Part shown: in pieces, positions 21,978 to 47,233 of the stretch | How positions within the stretch are numbered: the stretch's first letter is position 1 | Layout of the letters: each line of letters starts with the position of its first letter | Virus genome (UHGV): UHGV-1351982 | Length of the DNA: 64,000 nt | Strand: one strand, 5' to 3' | Source of the DNA: a virus | Program-made: the position numbers and the translations under genes | The notes under the pieces: model-generated | The model's database searches: none | Told to the model about the DNA's origin: nothing | The model's input: only the letters and a program-made list of their open reading frames with translations

Positions 21978-22010
21978 AACCCCAGTGGATTTCCACTGGG
22001 GTTTTCTTTT
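21978..22010. terminator. bidirectional intrinsic terminator between convergent early and late blocks
   Basis: Stem CCCCAGTGGA/TCCACTGGGG with A-run upstream and T-run downstream. Confidence 0.75.
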
Positions 22011-23223
22011 ACTTATCAAGTAATTGTTTTACCAATTTCTTAAGTTCATCAATTTCTTGCTGTTGCTTTTCAACAACTTCATTAAGTTCATTAAAAGCAT
22101 TAACTAGGAGAGCGGTAACACCGCTATAACTTACACCTAAATACTCGCTGTTAGAGATTTTATAAACAGCCTCCGGCAAAACTGCCTGTACATCCTGAGC
22201 TATTACACTTGCTTCCTCAGAATAAATAGAGTGTTCATCTTCATCAAGATTATTACGTTTAAAATAAGTATAACCCTTAATAGATTTAACTTTCTCTCTT
22301 GCTGTTTTAATCTCTTTTAAATTGGCTTTTAATCTAATATCAGAAGTGCTAACCCATTGAACGCAAGACGCATATCCAGCATCATTAAATGTGTAGATTG
22401 CACCTTTTATGTTAAAATGAGCCTCACAACCCCCGGCACTATATCTAACAACATCAAGGCCAGCAGCCCAGTCACCACCCCATCTAACTACTTTAAACAC
22501 GTTTGAGGCAGCATCATCACCTGGTAATTCAACAAGAAGGCCACAAGCGCGATCGGCTTCAGCCTTAGCACGATTTGCCTCAGTAGTAGCATCTACAGCC
22601 TTATCTCCTGCTTCTACAGCAGAACCAGCCGCATTAGTTTCTGATTCTTTAGCATTTAATTCTGATTGTTTAGCGGAAGCAGCATGTTCTCCAGCAGTTG
22701 TAGCAGCAGCTTCTGCACCTGCTTTTGCTGTTTCAGCACCAGTCTTAGCAGTTTCTGCAGCTGTCTGAGCTTGTTGAGCCGCAGTTTTAGCTTGTTCGGC
22801 AAGTCTACGACTGGTCTCCGCATTTTGAGCAGCTAATTCAGCAGAATTCCTGAATCCTTTAGATTCTTCCGCCGATGTAGCGGATGCTTCAGCACTCTTT
22901 TGTGACAGACCAGCTTGTCTCTCAGCTTCCGCGGCAGATGCCGCAGATTGAGTTGCAGATGTTTCAGAAGAAGTAGCATAAATTGCAGCTAGGTTCTCCG
23001 AGTCCTTAGCATTTGTTTCAGATTCTTTTGCTGCAATCTCAGAATCTTTTGCTGCCGCAGCAGAAGAAGCAGAGGCTTCTACAGCAGCAGTTAATTCACC
23101 AGCAGTAATAGAACTAATAGAATTACCTAAAACTACTGTATATTTAGGATACTTACTAGCAGTAGTTGTAGTGTCATCTATATTCAGAATCTGCTGTACA
23201 ATAATTTTAGTTTTAAGTGCCAT
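22009..23223 (-). CDS. tail fiber protein with C-terminal intramolecular-chaperone (peptidase S74-like) domain
   Basis: 404 aa; Ala/Ser/Glu-rich low-complexity N-terminal half; C-terminal part resembles autoproteolytic chaperone domains of phage fibers. Confidence 0.65.
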   Translation of the reverse strand: MALKTKIIVQQILNIDDTTTTASKYPKYTVVLGNSISSITAGELTAAVEASASSAAAAKDSEIAAKESETNAKDSENLAAIYATSSETSATQSAASAAEAERQAGLSQKSAEASATSAEESKGFRNSAELAAQNAETSRRLAEQAKTAAQQAQTAAETAKTGAETAKAGAEAAATTAGEHAASAKQSELNAKESETNAAGSAVEAGDKAVDATTEANRAKAEADRACGLLVELPGDDAASNVFKVVRWGGDWAAGLDVVRYSAGGCEAHFNIKGAIYTFNDAGYASCVQWVSTSDIRLKANLKEIKTAREKVKSIKGYTYFKRNNLDEDEHSIYSEEASVIAQDVQAVLPEAVYKISNSEYLGVSYSGVTALLVNAFNELNEVVEKQQQEIDELKKLVKQLLDK

Positions 23224-40547: not shown

Positions 40548-41761
40548 TCTTTATCCCCATCGGCAGTGCCTTGCGGTCTACCACCTTCTTGACCAGATAC
40601 ACCTGTTGCAGAACCAGCAACGTTAGCAGGAATACGAATCTTATTCATCTGCTCATCATCTAAAGGTTCAAGGTTAAGCTCTTCACGAGCTTCGTTACCA
40701 GTCATGATACCGTTATTAACCAAAGAGGTTAAATGTTTAGCCTCAGCTTCTTTATCTGGCGTCAGTGCAGCTACTTCCTTAGTATTAGGAGTAACCTTGT
40801 AGCCAAAGAAGAAAGTAAGAGAACTAGTCAGCTTGTTCAGCATAGGAATGATAGTCATGTAATAGAACAATTCGATGTTTGGTCGAATGTTAGCATTATT
40901 ACCACCATCAAGTAACACTTGCGGAACACCAAAGGCAAGACAGATGGATTTATTAAATCCTTCGATATCTTCCTTGAAGTCTAGATCTTTAAAAGAGGAT
41001 ATTTGGGAGTACGGTTTTGCTTTCATACCACCATCTAGAATCAGGACAGTAGACTGACCAGTACTAGGATTATAATCGAGTTGTAATTCTTCTTGTTTAC
41101 GCTCACGCAATTTCTTGTTCAGGATTTCATCCGTCTCAAGAATAAGACCAATCACTGTGCCGTTATCGAGGAACTTCTCTTTAAAGTTAAGCATTTTAGA
41201 ACGCTTCTCAAGAGAGTCAATAACTGTAGCAACACGAGATTGTCCAGAAATTTGGGAGTTTGTGCCACACACGTAACTGTTATCCTTTATAAAGATAATC
41301 TCATCTACGCGATAGTCTATCTGGTTATTAAATATGAATTTTTTGATAAACTTATTGGCATCTGCCTCTACTTGCATTAGTGCAGCAGGGACATGGTAAA
41401 GTGCTGTGCCATCCCAATAGATGTATGCACAACCCTCAAAAAGTAGGTCAGTGACTACAAGTCTACGGAATGTGCTTATATCCATGAATGGATTAGGTCG
41501 TACATTTAAGAGAGTGTCTAGAGTCTTTGCCTTGACGCCATTAGCGTACGTGACAATATTATATTTATCTCCGACAGTATAAGAACACTCCGCCGCACTA
41601 TCGATAACCATGTTAGCAGTTCGGTTGAGAATCTCAATCTTACTGTAGGCTTGTCCAGTGGTAAATGGCTTACGGTTAGTGCGATGACTAACTGGTTCCA
41701 TGTCTCTTATAATACGTTGACCCGGATTTAGCTTTTCAGTAATCCAGCTTTTTAAACCCAT
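40544..41761 (-). CDS. portal protein (T5 pb7-like)
   Basis: 405 aa (T5 pb7 recalled as ~403 aa); position after terminase. Confidence 0.75.
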   Translation of the reverse strand: MGLKSWITEKLNPGQRIIRDMEPVSHRTNRKPFTTGQAYSKIEILNRTANMVIDSAAECSYTVGDKYNIVTYANGVKAKTLDTLLNVRPNPFMDISTFRRLVVTDLLFEGCAYIYWDGTALYHVPAALMQVEADANKFIKKFIFNNQIDYRVDEIIFIKDNSYVCGTNSQISGQSRVATVIDSLEKRSKMLNFKEKFLDNGTVIGLILETDEILNKKLRERKQEELQLDYNPSTGQSTVLILDGGMKAKPYSQISSFKDLDFKEDIEGFNKSICLAFGVPQVLLDGGNNANIRPNIELFYYMTIIPMLNKLTSSLTFFFGYKVTPNTKEVAALTPDKEAEAKHLTSLVNNGIMTGNEAREELNLEPLDDEQMNKIRIPANVAGSATGVSGQEGGRPQGTADGDKE

Positions 41762-42285
41762 TATAAGAACCTTGCGAATCCTGATTTAATTTCAGTCTTG
41801 ACTTGTGTCTTTTCTTGAGGATTCTGTAGCTTTTCCTTTTGTTTAAGAACCCATACCTTCTGCTTATTAGCAGAGAAAAGGGGAGGTTCTTTAGTGTACA
41901 CCTTATGTAATAGTTGGTGATGGTGGACACAAAGGGTAACAGTGTCATCTACTAGCTCATGCCTATATCTTTCATAGAATGCCGTCCTATTTGAGAGGAC
42001 TGTTTCTTCGTCAGTGAAATCCAACTGGAGTTCTTTAGCAAATTTTTTAACTAGTAGAGACACTGTATGGTAATGATGAAGCTCTAATTCTTCACCACAA
42101 CCACAGATTTCGCAGCGATCGGCTTTTTTATATTGACTTTTTATACCGTCTCGCATGAGTGATATAGCATCACGTTTATATTTTACATTTCCTGCCACAG
42201 TATTCTCCTCAACTGTATGAATATAGTATACATAATCATGTCGAATTTGTAAAGGGGATTTTAAAATGCAGGAATGGGATACCAA
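41761..42285 (-). CDS. HNH endonuclease
   Basis: 174 aa; Cys pairs and His-rich HNH core (CEICGCGEELELHHYH ... LCVHHHQLLH); sits between large terminase and portal. Confidence 0.6.
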   Translation of the reverse strand: MVSHSCILKSPLQIRHDYVYYIHTVEENTVAGNVKYKRDAISLMRDGIKSQYKKADRCEICGCGEELELHHYHTVSLLVKKFAKELQLDFTDEETVLSNRTAFYERYRHELVDDTVTLCVHHHQLLHKVYTKEPPLFSANKQKVWVLKQKEKLQNPQEKTQVKTEIKSGFARFL

Positions 42286-42312: not shown

Positions 42313-43629
42313 TTATTTCCCACGGGAAATTGAGTAAATTCCATAACGCAGTGCGTCACAAAGGTGAGAGTTCGCATCATGACGTGGTTTTTCACGTGAT
42401 AATTTCTCTTCGCCTTCCTGGAAGTCCCACTTGTAGTTCGCTAGGGCGTGGATCAATGAGGTACATGAAGCATCTACGATGATCTTGCCTTGCTGGAACA
42501 GTGCTTGCAGACATGCCAAACCATCTAGGACAGATTTCTTAGCAGGTGCAGAAGCGATTTCATGTTCATATGCTAAGTCCTGACGGAACTGAGCAGCAGC
42601 GGAGTCTACAAATATACGATCAACATTATAACGATCTATGCAGTGTTGGATATAAGCAGCGTGTTGAGCTGTAGTCTTTTCAGCTTGCTGATATTCTTCC
42701 AGTACGTAATAAACATCAGTATCATAGTGATACTTGATAGTAAGAACTGCTGTAGGGTCACGATAACCAACGTCGATACCAAGTAATGTTTCGAAAGCCT
42801 CATCATCTTTAAAGAAGTGGCGCATACCTTTGAGGTCTTTAACATGTTCGATAGCATTGAAGGTGTCAAAGATCTGACCTTCGAATACAGAGAAGTCAGC
42901 CTCATATTCTTGACGGAAGTAGTTTTTACTAACAGTACGACGCGCTTCTTCGATATCGTTCAGATCAGCACGTGGGTTATCACGATATGTACCATGAATA
43001 GATACCCAGTTAGGTAGCGTTTCGTTAAATCCTTTCTCATAGAACTCTTTAAACCAGTTACCACCACGAGGTGTGGAAATAAACAGAGCTTTAGAGTTTG
43101 GCTTATCTAGAGTAGGACGTAACTGAATATCGAAAGCTGCACCACCAACGTCGGAAATCGCTGCTTCGTCAAAAATGATGAAGTCATATGAACGACCAAC
43201 CGCGGAGTCAGCCTGCGCCGCAGAAGCCAGCTTAAAGAGAGAGCCGTTTGCTAGCTCAATCTCTTTATCTTTGGCGTTCTCACGTTCAGTCTGTAGTCCA
43301 TACTTCTTAATAAGACCACGAATCTGTGACCAACCGATGTTAGCCAGTGAGTAGTTAGGTGCAACTACCAGCACCTTCACATTGGGTTCCAGAAGTTTTA
43401 GGAACCCAAGTGTATATGCGATGAATGACTTACCTACACGACGTGATACACATGCAGTCACGAAGCGGTGTCTTGGGTCTTCCAGCGCATTAATGATTGC
43501 AATCTGAGGGGCATTAGGTGTAATTCCCTCTTGAGCTAGAATGCTAGAGACTGGCAGACGGAAGAATCGTTTGTCAATACCAAAGTCAATAACATCTGTG
43601 GTGTTAATATAGTCTCTAGAGACTTTCAT
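42313..43629 (-). CDS. terminase large subunit
   Basis: 438 aa; Walker A-like (VSRRVGKSF); nuclease-type acidic residues C-terminally; canonical position. Confidence 0.85.
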   Translation of the reverse strand: MKVSRDYINTTDVIDFGIDKRFFRLPVSSILAQEGITPNAPQIAIINALEDPRHRFVTACVSRRVGKSFIAYTLGFLKLLEPNVKVLVVAPNYSLANIGWSQIRGLIKKYGLQTERENAKDKEIELANGSLFKLASAAQADSAVGRSYDFIIFDEAAISDVGGAAFDIQLRPTLDKPNSKALFISTPRGGNWFKEFYEKGFNETLPNWVSIHGTYRDNPRADLNDIEEARRTVSKNYFRQEYEADFSVFEGQIFDTFNAIEHVKDLKGMRHFFKDDEAFETLLGIDVGYRDPTAVLTIKYHYDTDVYYVLEEYQQAEKTTAQHAAYIQHCIDRYNVDRIFVDSAAAQFRQDLAYEHEIASAPAKKSVLDGLACLQALFQQGKIIVDASCTSLIHALANYKWDFQEGEEKLSREKPRHDANSHLCDALRYGIYSISRGK

Positions 43630-44111
43630 TATCTCTTACCTCCTCCTGCTAGAGCGGTAATAAGATTCATATAGTTTTCGTCACCACTTCCAGCAATAAT
43701 ATTATTCTGAATATTAGTCTGGTTAGCCGGAGTACGGGCTGCTGCCTTCACTTTCTCCAGTTCTACCATCATTTTCATTTCTTCCATCTTCATCTTGTGC
43801 GCCTTCCAGAGAATATCCATGATATCCTGGTCAGAACCCATGCCAGTTTCTTCGAGTTCTTCCAACTTGCGCTTGATAACTTCATCAAGAACTCCGAATA
43901 AGCGGTCACGATTACGGAAGCCGCTTTCCATAAAGATATCGTTAAGATAGTTTTTAACTTCCCCACGATTCATTATATCACGGAATGCAATCTCGGACAT
44001 CCCAAGACTACGAGCAGCGGCAGGAACATCACTACCGCACTGTAAATAGGCTTCAATAACATCCATGCCTTCGGGAGACATGAGATCGGGAACTAATACA
44101 TCATTTGCCAT
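43629..44111 (-). CDS. terminase small subunit (putative)
   Basis: 160 aa; N-terminal HTH-like region; stop overlaps large terminase start. Confidence 0.6.
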
Positions 44112-44121
44112 ATATCCTCCT

Positions 44122-45903
44122 TTAGGTTAGGCGTTGAACTGTTACACGTAGTCTTGGCAAGAAAACAGCTGCCGCTTCTGCAGCGTGAATGATAACACCC
44201 AACTCAACGTTGCCATTACCAAGGTTTTTAATAGTATAAATATATCCGTTCCTACGGAAAGCAAACTTATCAGGCCTACTAGCCCAAGTTTGTGTATAAC
44301 TATAGGAAGTTGTACTGTGATAAGGTACTAGATATCCAGGTGGCAGAGTAAGAATCTGGTGGAATACACCATCACCAGCTGTATAACTTTGTTGACGTCT
44401 ACCTTGTACCTGCCAAGCGCTACCGCCGTAAGTACGCACAGGCATTCCAGCAGTATTAAGATTACCCATAATAACTTCAGTAGTTAATATAACGGTAGAG
44501 TGAGCATTAGGTAATCCTAACCAAACAGTGGCCAAAGGTGTATAGAAGTCACCAGCACCAGGGTAGGAAGGAGTTATATCATCACCAACATAAGTACTTG
44601 CAACGTTGCCTGGAAATAACCTGAGGGGTACAGTACTAGGACTCCACACAGGTCCATGTTCATTACCGATGGAGTTGGTATTAGTATCTACATACCATTG
44701 TTTACCTACACCAAATTTATATAAGCTAATTTGAGAAGCTGCACCCCCATAGTTAACAGGAGACCACAACCCGCCATTACTAGAGCCGATAAATTCACAT
44801 CGTGCAGTATTATCACCAAAAACTCCGGTATACGCAGCGTTATTACCAACATACTCCATATCAGGGCGATAGCCTAAGTTTCCAAAGGCATTCTGGTTAA
44901 TGAATTTATATCCTGTATTTGGTAAACTAACACCTTTAATAGTAAAGTTAGATGGAGATATTAGGATATCTGAACCGGTAAATGGATTACCAGAAACTCC
45001 CATACTACCATTAGAATAGCGCAGATTTAGCACATACCAAATAACCTTAGTTGGCGTAACGTTATACCAGTCCTGTACATATACCTTTCTAGCAGACTGA
45101 GCAGCCATATTAGAAGTAGAACCTCTACAAACATATATTTTTTTTGGATATGCAGGAGATTGGTAAAGAACGTTTACGTTATCTGGTAGTACACCTTTCT
45201 TACCTGCAAAGCCACGAATATTAGAATTACAAACATAAAACCAATCATGGCCTCTACCAGCAGAACCAACAGGCGCCTGCCAGTTAGGTTCCCAATAATC
45301 TGCGTTACCACCATCTAAAGGAACAGTAGAGACACCAGTTGGAAAACCCATAAGACTCCAGGCTCTGGCAATGGCTTCACCAGCAGAAACACCACCAGGT
45401 CTAAAGATCTGGAAACCAGAGGACTGTAGTAAACTGCCTCCAGAACCTTGCCGAGCAATAGATTCCTCATGACCAAGACCACCATTATAGATATAGGTAC
45501 CATGAGCTAAACTATCACCGATCGCAAAAGCAGATGTTACAGATAATTCAGCACCAGCACGTGGTTGGTCTTCAAAGAATGATAAGAACTGGCCAACCTG
45601 AGATTGTGTACCATTAAGGAAACCCCTATGAGTACCATTTATCTCAATAGCAGTTAATATAACTCTACCAGGATCATTGGATTTAATGTTTATAATATCC
45701 CAAGGCATCTGAGTAACAAAGTACCCATTACCTGCATCACCTAGGGCAGCCTCATAAGTCCCATCAACTAGGACGAAGGGCATATCTGAGTGGAAGATAC
45801 TATTAGTATTTGGAGAGTAGTGCTGATTTATATCACCACCATTAGCAGCGTTTAGAGATAATACAGTTTTACCATCACTAAATTTTCCTGCGAAAAAACT
45901 CAT
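44122..45903 (-). CDS. receptor-binding tail protein (T5 pb5-like)
   Basis: 593 aa; Gly/Asn/Ser-rich; N-terminus MSFFAGK... resembles what I recall of T5 pb5; divergent from a lipoprotein gene, as for oad/llp in T5. Confidence 0.6.
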
Positions 45904-45927
45904 ACAATCTCCTTCTTTAAAAATGTA

Positions 45928-45959
45928 TTTGCTTAGATCCCTCTATTTTGCTATAATAT
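45928..45959 (+). promoter_or_regulatory. sigma70-type promoter for the lipoprotein gene (TTGCTT -35, TGCTATAAT -10)
   Basis: Conserved downstream box ATATTTATAAATTAAACAGAGGA; lies in the divergent region shared with the receptor-binding gene. Confidence 0.65.
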
Positions 45960-45986
45960 ATTTATAAATTAAACAGAGGAACGATT

Positions 45987-46253
45987 ATGAAAAAGTTACT
46001 AGCTATCGTAGTTGCAGCAGTAGTGTTGACTGGTTGTGTGCCAGCTCCCGAGCCATTTTGTAGGGCATATGTGAAGTCTTATGGTCATGTTGGTGAAGAA
46101 CACTACGCTTTAGATATTCGAGAAGCACGTACTGTGGGCTACCGATTCCCTAAAACTCAGTTACGCACTAAGTTTGGGTGGTGGGATTTGTCACAGTTTG
46201 ATCTCAAATATGGCGATTGCAAATTTAAACTAGAACAATCTGGTCACTTGTAA
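45987..46253 (+). CDS. llp: lipoprotein, Llp-like (candidate receptor-blocking / superinfection-exclusion protein)
   Basis: 88 aa; signal peptide with lipobox (AVVLTG-C); conserved early promoter upstream; divergent from receptor-binding gene. Confidence 0.7.
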   Translation: MKKLLAIVVAAVVLTGCVPAPEPFCRAYVKSYGHVGEEHYALDIREARTVGYRFPKTQLRTKFGWWDLSQFDLKYGDCKFKLEQSGHL

Positions 46254-46327: not shown

Positions 46328-46642
46328 ATGCAAGATGAAGAAAAGTCCTTTCAGGAACCTGTTAACTTTGAAATAGATCCCAGGACTAAAGCAATACATG
46401 ATGCGATTAACGAAATCATTCAAGACGTCATAGAAGATACAATGGAAGATGTGATGGGAACATCCTTCTTACTAGAAGAATCCGGCTTCGATGAAGTAAT
46501 GGATCTTATCGGGACAGTCATAATGGTTCGTGCAATTGCTAGGATATTCCAAATACCAGGACTACAGGAGAAGCAAAGAGATGTCAGACGACAACAGAAG
46601 AAAGAACAGACGCGGGGAAGTGTACGAAAGTTGGATAAATAG
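46328..46642 (+). CDS. hypothetical acidic protein
   Basis: 104 aa ORF; overlaps the next small gene in another frame. Confidence 0.4.
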   Translation: MQDEEKSFQEPVNFEIDPRTKAIHDAINEIIQDVIEDTMEDVMGTSFLLEESGFDEVMDLIGTVIMVRAIARIFQIPGLQEKQRDVRRQQKKEQTRGSVRKLDK

Positions 46643-46715
46643 TTTCGGATTCGGGACTGTATTATTCTTTATCTTTGTACTCTTTTGGTTAGCGGCTATG
46701 GCGGGATGGTTATAA
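46581..46715 (+). CDS. small membrane protein
   Basis: ATG at 46581 after GGAGAAG inside track ORF 46530-46715; basic N-terminus then one hydrophobic helix. Confidence 0.4.
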   Translation: MSDDNRRKNRRGEVYESWINSFGFGTVLFFIFVLFWLAAMAGWL

Positions 46716-46819
46716 TGGAAGTAGTAATTATTGCTTTACTAGTTGTGGTACTTATCGGGCAGTGCATCTTAGACAACCACTTAGCTCGTATCGAACGTAA
46801 GCTGCGGGGAGACAAATAA
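46715..46819 (+). CDS. small membrane protein (34 aa)
   Basis: Not in track (below size cutoff); ATG overlaps upstream stop (TAATG); hydrophobic N-terminus MEVVIIALLVVVLIG. Confidence 0.4.
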   Translation: MEVVIIALLVVVLIGQCILDNHLARIERKLRGDK

Positions 46820-47013
46820 TGGATTGGTTAGGACTTATTACACTTGTAGTATGGCTTGTCTGGATTGTTGGATATATGACTTCACATCGTAACCGTATAC
46901 AGCGGCTAGAGGATAAAGTCACCCAGCTTAATATTAATATGGATAAGTTACTGGACTCCCAACGTAATGATCGGGCACGTATTCACCAACTTGAGAGGGA
47001 ATTAGATGTTTAG
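46819..47013 (+). CDS. small membrane protein
   Basis: 64 aa; start overlaps upstream stop (TAATG); N-terminal TM helix followed by a charged helical tail. Confidence 0.5.
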   Translation: MDWLGLITLVVWLVWIVGYMTSHRNRIQRLEDKVTQLNINMDKLLDSQRNDRARIHQLERELDV

Positions 47014-47233
47014 CTTTGTAGCTATCTTCATTATCGGGGTGCTTGCGGGAATCTTCGGAACACTCGGGGCTATTAACAAGCATCGTGAATACGTTGCGGG
47101 AGTATCGCGGGAGCTTTCGGAAAGGGAGCGGAAGTTTGCGGAGAAACGTGCGGAGTTTGAGCGAGAGTGGTCGGATGGATCTCGGGCGTCGCAGAGGAGG
47201 TTTCGGGCTGATTCCGTGAGTTCTCCTAAGTAG
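47006..47233 (+). CDS. small membrane protein
   Basis: 75 aa; N-terminal TM helix, Arg/Glu-rich tail; followed by strong terminator. Confidence 0.5.
   Translation: MFSFVAIFIIGVLAGIFGTLGAINKHREYVAGVSRELSERERKFAEKRAEFEREWSDGSRASQRRFRADSVSSPK

Follow-up and report, generated by a model that had tools for sequence, protein, structure and literature searches.

The 64,000-nucleotide stretch of the virus genome UHGV-1351982 analyzed here (the window) contains a divergent pair of genes that encode a 593-amino-acid (aa) receptor-binding protein (RBP) and an 88-aa lipoprotein of the Llp type. Very probably, this pair serves host recognition and lytic conversion in a T5-like Salmonella/E. coli phage (Demerecviridae, Markadamsvirinae, Epseptimavirus) and is the form of that cassette specific for the outer-membrane receptor BtuB. 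The sequence analysis itself showed homology, the arrangement of the genes, the lipoprotein signals, a conserved promoter and that the RBP belongs to the BtuB cluster, and published homologues provide BtuB dependence (SuperGirl, SPC35, BF23, DT57C and S126) as well as BtuB blocking by Llp of the BF23/DT57C type. The initial annotation of the locus had described a pb5-like RBP gene paired divergently with a lipoprotein gene (lipobox LTGC) under a conserved early promoter, as in T5 oad/llp, and had suggested from the distance of both proteins to those of T5 that a different outer-membrane receptor is used. The list of open reading frames (ORFs) agrees exactly with the two divergent frames, and the remaining elements of this description were borne out by the comparisons below. 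The module is already known: it is the Epseptimavirus allele of the BF23-type hrs/llp module, its genes are deposited and annotated in more than 130 genomes, and for BF23 hrs/llp the BtuB-type variant has been on record since 2006 (Mondigler et al. 2006, cited in PMC4728585 and PMC8624392).

By sequence, the 593-aa protein is an RBP of the pb5/Hrs family. It matched PHROG 4815, "receptor binding tail protein", along its entire length (residues 1-593, E 3.2e-283), and the solved T5 pb5 in the PDB (8b14_B, E 1.6e-46; also 8a8c_B) over two stretches, residues 1-195 and 274-593. A direct BLASTP comparison with T5 pb5 gave E 2.6e-52 at 29% identity. In Pfam, no model covered either the RBP or Llp, and the only matches were sub-threshold (LPAM_1, Phage_lipoprotein and KOW6). 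The RBP resembles T5 pb5 least in residues 101-220 (8-22%) and 541-593 (12%), two regions that align with the FhuA-contacting parts of pb5 (Gln115, Phe170 and loop L4, 570-590). Divergence from BF23 is also greatest there, identity to BF23 Hrs falling to 50-57% in residues 141-200, and 17 conservative differences from SuperGirl cluster in the same regions.

Which receptor does this protein recognize? Within Markadamsvirinae, RBPs fall into three clusters, from which the terminal receptor (BtuB, FepA or FhuA) can be predicted (BASEL study, PMC8594841). The window RBP sorts by sequence with those of BtuB-dependent phages (BF23 Hrs, EPS7, SPC35, DT57C and the BASEL Bas26-34 cluster), away from the FhuA and FepA clusters. 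Its identity to BtuB-group relatives is 99.7% for KKP_3831, 98.7% for Stitch, 97.1% for SuperGirl, 90% for S126, 82.7% for SPC35, 75.8% for BF23 Hrs and 64-65% for DT57C, versus 28-29% for the other classes, namely T5 and SP15 (FhuA type), S124 (FepA type) and Klebsiella phage Spivey. FhuA or FepA specificity was rejected on the basis of these low values. BtuB is given as the terminal receptor of SuperGirl/Bas29 (BASEL table S5; repeated in PMC11619597), BtuB dependence has been reported for BF23, SPC35, EPS7 and DT57C (PMC4728585, PMC8624392, PMC10644984), and S126 is listed among BtuB-binding phages. Since DT57C retains BtuB specificity at only 65% RBP identity, a receptor other than BtuB is hardly to be expected at 97% identity to SuperGirl. 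Thus, judged from its RBP, the window phage almost certainly uses BtuB, the vitamin B12 transporter, as its terminal receptor; the comparison with BF23 and DT57C that the initial annotation had proposed leads directly to this answer. The PDB holds no structure of any BtuB-type RBP or Llp.

The 88-aa protein starts with MKKLLAIVVAAVVLTGC, in which a basic n-region (MKK) and a hydrophobic core are followed by the lipobox; residues L14-T15-G16-C17 fit the pattern [LVI][ASTVI][GAS]C and the +2 residue is Val. Lipidation at Cys17 and sorting to the outer membrane are predicted from these signals. The Pfam model LPAM_1 scored the window Llp at 18.6 bits, just under its cut-off of 20, and BF23 Llp, at 23.9 bits, passed. 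The protein matched phrog_1119 (E 2.3e-23), is 98.9% identical to Llp of Stitch and SuperGirl, and is 67-69% identical to Llp of BF23, SPC35 and DT57C over 88/88 residues (E about 1e-48; 68% and E 2.7e-48 for BF23 by BLASTP). Database records split into two groups, 192 at 95-99% identity and 204 at 60-80%, with almost none between. The BtuB-type family is narrow: among 5.8 billion proteins, we found 10 clusters at 90% identity; wherever a source is named, it is a T5-like phage, and several clusters without a source name were on contigs 92-120 kb long. An alignment of 11 family sequences has 28 invariant columns, which include Cys17, Cys25 and Cys78. The latter two parallel Cys26 and Cys73 of T5 Llp and may form a disulphide here.

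Function has been addressed in close relatives of this protein. BtuB on infected cells is reported to be blocked by Llp of BF23 (cited from Mondigler et al. 2006 in PMC4728585); DT57C Llp is one residue off BF23 Llp, and the cloned DT57C llp lowered the plating of both BF23 and DT57C by more than 100-fold and left T5 unaffected (PMC4728585). By extension from this 68%-identical tested homologue, the window Llp would block BtuB as well. As a separate observation, the window Llp has Arg26 (46062-46064) immediately after the invariant Cys25, a position occupied by Lys in Stitch and SuperGirl. None of the database copies is identical to the window Llp, since matches in the phage collection reach 98.9% at best.

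The arrangement of the two genes is that of known T5-like phages. The RBP gene and llp diverge from an intergenic spacer of 83 bp (45904-45986), and the same divergent pair is found in Stitch, BF23 and T5; the pairing was kept in every examined T5-like locus with a BtuB- or FhuA-type RBP. This divergent module is referred to as a hallmark that is passed on as one unit (PMC8624392). The RBP gene lies directly upstream of the terminase small subunit gene and then the large subunit gene, an order shared by Stitch, T5, SPC35 and DT57C, and its position upstream of the terminase genes, where the late region ends beside the terminal repeat, is invariable across Markadamsvirinae (BASEL paper, PMC8594841). 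The spacer carries TTGCTT and, 17 bp on, TATAAT (45952-45957) with TG ahead. When the spacers of the window, Stitch, SuperGirl, BF23 and T5 were aligned, both hexamers were invariant; they fall exactly on the -35 and -10 signals that the BF23 record gives for llp and inside the "putative early promoter T5P41" annotated in T5, and the window promoter is identical to those of Stitch and SuperGirl. The sequence TTGCTT is the characteristic -35 element of strong T5 promoters such as PN25. The llp site was absent from the output of a generic sigma-70 promoter scan because TTGCTT agrees with TTGACA at only 3/6 positions, and our promoter call is based on the alignment to the annotated BF23 and T5 promoters rather than on that scan. 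From this conservation, we infer that llp would be transcribed early.

How would the module work? The RBP would sit at the tip of the straight central tail fibre, where its irreversible binding to the TonB-dependent transporter BtuB would trigger DNA ejection. By homology with pb5, it may insert loops into the extracellular lumen of BtuB and thereby commit the virion to ejection (PMC9586334). Its gene would be a late gene, forming an operon-like block with the terminase genes. llp, on the other hand, would be expressed early from its strong T5-type sigma-70 promoter, and its product would, after export and lipidation at Cys17, reach the outer membrane (the +2 residue being Val, not Asp) and bind BtuB. 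Infected cells and debris would then stop adsorbing the window phage and other BtuB phages, providing superinfection exclusion and protection of the progeny. By analogy with T5 Llp on FhuA, Llp could block from the periplasmic side, where it would bind the plug so that the extracellular loops fold inward ("reverse allostery").

That BtuB-type Llp works like T5 Llp is the less certain part of this proposal. T5 Llp contains an intramolecular disulphide. It is periplasmic and binds a non-native conformation of the plug, with extracellular loops 7 and 8 folding inward (PMC9586334). The window Llp and T5 Llp have a common layout, a lipid-bearing Cys, a second Cys 8-10 residues on and a third near the C-terminus. 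However, a BLASTP comparison of the two proteins yielded no significant match (E 0.06). An hhalign comparison of the BtuB-type alignment with T5 Llp reached 93% probability when signal peptides were included; we rejected it as evidence of homology of the mature domains, given that its 28 columns (residues 1-29) cover just the signal peptide, the lipobox and the first Cys. When signal peptides were removed, the profile-profile hhalign comparison of mature domains was not significant (E 0.14), the T5-type profile comprising 4 clusters only, obtained from a second database search. T5 Llp and BF23 Llp do match by BLASTP (30% over 67 aa, E 1e-4), a match that we discounted because signal peptides were included. 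Likewise, the window, BF23 and T5 Llp proteins all match phrog_1119, but this is not independent evidence because the profile was built from the heterogeneous members themselves.

An AlphaFold2 model of Llp, computed from the family alignment, was confident, with a pLDDT of 83.4 (above 90 for most of residues 21-88) and consists of a small five-stranded barrel followed by a C-terminal helix. A sequence search of the PDB with the window Llp returned nothing up to E 10, and a Foldseek search of the model against the PDB found nothing significant, the best match being a Tudor-like fragment at E 0.058; T5 Llp (8A60 chain B, 7QJF) was absent among the top 50 matches listed. It is plausible that the window Llp shares the fold class of T5 Llp. 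By sequence, it lies outside the T5 Llp family, although it very probably acts in a similar way, and homology between the two proteins is unproven.

Two mechanisms may be considered. First, BtuB-type Llp could be a highly diverged structural homologue of T5 Llp, the same disulphide-stapled small beta-barrel exerting the same periplasmic plug-binding "reverse allostery". Llp and Cor would then be a single ancient family whose members, along with the partner RBP, switch targets among TonB-dependent transporters. We consider this possible but slightly less likely than not. Alternatively, Llp could block BtuB as an analogue rather than a homologue of T5 Llp, acting differently, either at another site or without plug-mediated reverse allostery. 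This alternative agrees on the identity of the module and differs solely on how Llp acts. Several points speak for it: (i) T5 and BF23 Llp are called non-homologous in the literature (PMC4728585, PMC10644984); (ii) the hhalign and Foldseek comparisons returned the values given above, with 28 aligned columns when signal peptides were kept; and (iii) an SH3-like small barrel is a very common fold. We regard it as a serious but rather unlikely explanation.

Assignment to BtuB was weighed against the view that the RBP, although in the Hrs cluster, now recognizes a different receptor, either some other TonB-dependent transporter or a protein specific to Salmonella, and that the Llp variant blocks this one instead. 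The authors who described SIY1lw regard the receptor of the subclade to which the window RBP belongs (the OSY-STA group) as unknown, the RBP is only 76% identical to BF23 Hrs (50-57% within residues 141-200), and Llp is only 68% identical to the tested BF23 type and falls in a separate sequence class. However, SuperGirl is listed with BtuB as its terminal receptor and differs by a single Llp residue at 97.1% RBP identity, S126 is listed among BtuB-binding phages at 90% RBP identity, DT57C is still BtuB-specific at 65%, and EscoHU1, a reported BtuB user, has an Llp 97.7% identical to that of the window. A receptor shift is therefore highly improbable. Weaker still, and barely credible, is the idea that the 88-aa ORF encodes some generic small lipoprotein, or is a moron, with no part in receptor blocking and only a chance location beside the RBP gene: all Pfam families score below threshold, but the protein is 68% identical to one shown to exclude BF23, its divergent pairing with the RBP gene is conserved as described above, and its family is confined to those 10 clusters whose named sources are T5-like phages.

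Reading the pair as a BtuB-specific RBP/Llp module, we compared it with known systems. Closest are Stitch gp160/gp161, SuperGirl (Bas29) bas29_0209/0208, KKP_3831, SIY1lw and about 130 further Epseptimavirus records, which carry essentially the same genes (RBP 97.1-99.7%, Llp 98.9% identical) and differ by 2-17 conservative RBP substitutions and, in Stitch and SuperGirl, by K26 instead of R26 in Llp. BF23 hrs/llp (Mondigler, Ayoub & Heller 2006; GenBank DQ097178), whose receptor is BtuB, shares the RBP gene upstream of the terminase small subunit gene, the divergent 88-aa lipoprotein and identical -35/-10 hexamers; its RBP is 76% identical over the full length and its Llp 68%, with the same Cys17/25/78 pattern and a near-identical C-terminal half. 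It differs in genus (Tequintavirus versus Epseptimavirus), in RBP length (595 versus 593 aa, with the greatest divergence at residues 141-200) and in Llp class, BF23, SPC35 and DT57C forming one class and the window belonging to the Epseptimavirus (Stitch-type) class. FhuA-specific T5 oad (pb5)/llp (Decker et al. 1994; 8A8C, 8B14, 8A60, 7QJF) has the same gene order, divergent lipoprotein and early promoter, and its RBP belongs to the same family, with N-terminus MSFFAGK and C-terminus QRLT in common; the predicted window Llp fold would have T5 Llp as its nearest counterpart. In contrast, the window RBP is only 29% identical to that of T5 and 47 aa shorter, the mature Llp has no detectable sequence homology to T5 Llp, and the receptor is FhuA in T5 versus BtuB. 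A further system is that of the Cor superinfection-exclusion proteins of T1/phi80-type phages, which are also small outer-membrane lipoproteins that block a TonB-dependent transporter receptor and also fall in phrog_1119 (a likeness drawn via PHROGs); they target FhuA and come from unrelated small siphoviruses.

The finding has little significance beyond correct annotation. For users of such a phage, for instance in Salmonella biocontrol, resistance would be expected through loss of btuB, and in cocktail design mutual cross-exclusion with other BtuB-using T5-like phages would be expected. A structure of BtuB-Hrs or BtuB-Llp would be a useful test of the generality of the T5/FhuA mechanisms, which is a family-wide question and not specific to the window.

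The features of the locus are collected in Table 1. At the DNA level, the locus shares 98.6% identity with that of Salmonella phage vB_SalS-SIY1lw, 98.4% with KKP_3831 and 97.7% with Stitch, a group assigned to Demerecviridae, Markadamsvirinae, Epseptimavirus; for the 24 kb upstream of it, identity to this group is 97.5%. Altogether, 412 phage records matched the locus, 137 of them at 95-99% identity. In near-identical records, the usual labels of the pair are "receptor-binding (tail) protein" together with "receptor-blocking protein" or "Cor superinfection exclusion protein".

Table 1. Coordinates of the RBP/llp locus and adjacent genes in the window (functions as predicted).
Feature	Position	Strand	Basis
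Receptor-binding tail-tip protein gene (pb5/Hrs/Oad family, BtuB class), 593 aa	44122-45903	minus	ORF list, PHROG 4815, identities to relatives, solved T5 pb5
Ribosome-binding site of RBP gene, AAGGAG on minus strand	45909-45914	minus	Sequence reading; matches annotated Stitch ribosome-binding site (L001 5310-5314)
Putative llp early promoter: -35 TTGCTT 45929-45934, 17-bp gap, extended -10 TGcTATAAT 45949-45957	45929-45957	plus	Sequence and alignment; function inferred
Ribosome-binding site of llp, AGAGGA	45975-45980	plus	Sequence reading; matches Stitch ribosome-binding site (L001 5378-5381)
Predicted precursor (88 aa) of an Llp-type lipoprotein for receptor blocking (superinfection exclusion), with signal peptide aa 1-16, Cys17 lipid-modified, Cys25 and Cys78 conserved	45987-46253	plus	
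Terminase small subunit (SciB-like), immediately downstream of RBP gene, defining locus context	43629-44111	minus	ORF list; relatives annotated terminase small subunit or SciB
TerL (terminase large subunit)	42313-43629	minus	ORF list
Small early ORFs 3' of llp (104, 44, 64 and 75 aa)	46328-47233	plus	Counterparts: Stitch gp162-165, BF23 Orf1-4, T5 ORF148-151

The four small ORFs 3' of llp are probably co-transcribed with it. A Pfam search with the first of them (104 aa) returned zero matches. At the end of this ORF, a terminator-like stem-loop of 9 pairs followed by a T-rich tail (46639-46660, plus strand) may delimit a short early transcript comprising llp and the 104-aa ORF. A homologue of the same ORF (46328-46642, plus strand) is labelled "receptor blocking protein; T5 Llp-like" in S124, a FepA-type phage (L008 267-578). 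The S124 product is without signal peptide or lipobox, and only about 120 bp separate its gene from the RBP gene, so S124 has no Llp gene at the canonical position. The S124 annotation looks wrong.

On the other side of the terminase genes, a 174-aa ORF with a TTG start (41761-42285, minus strand) lies between the large subunit gene and the portal-side genes and contains HNH-like Cys/His motifs (CEICGC...HHYH...CVHHHQLLH). It had no Pfam match at E <= 0.01. UTK0010 has an ORF of the same length at this position and Stitch a shorter one of 438 bp; the ORF may be a homing-endonuclease-like insertion. Among the database records that match window positions 20000-46700 at about 97-98% identity, several name a host that is implausible for an enterobacterial T5-like phage (Campylobacter phage A148, Listeria phage LM 4-14-1, Klebsiella phage 150049 and Obesumbacterium phage Ob_P); these are probably contaminating phages or mislabelled hosts.

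Finally, the lateral tail fibre (LTF) locus of the window is collapsed, with 3.85 kb missing relative to phage UTK0010 (L005 6053-9898). The junction, near 22547-22554, carries the 8-nt microhomology GCGCGATC and was spanned by 0/318 matching phage records. What is left is an in-frame 404-aa ORF (22009-23223, minus strand) in which LtfA residues 1-230 (97% identical) are joined to the C-terminal ~215 residues of LtfB (78% identical), including its Peptidase_S74 intramolecular chaperone domain. Either this fusion arose in assembly, as an artefact, or it marks an LTF-deletion variant, natural or from the laboratory, that depends on the RBP alone. If real, it would imply lateral fibres without O-antigen-binding parts and reliance on the RBP-BtuB interaction alone, as in LTF-less T5 mutants on rough hosts.
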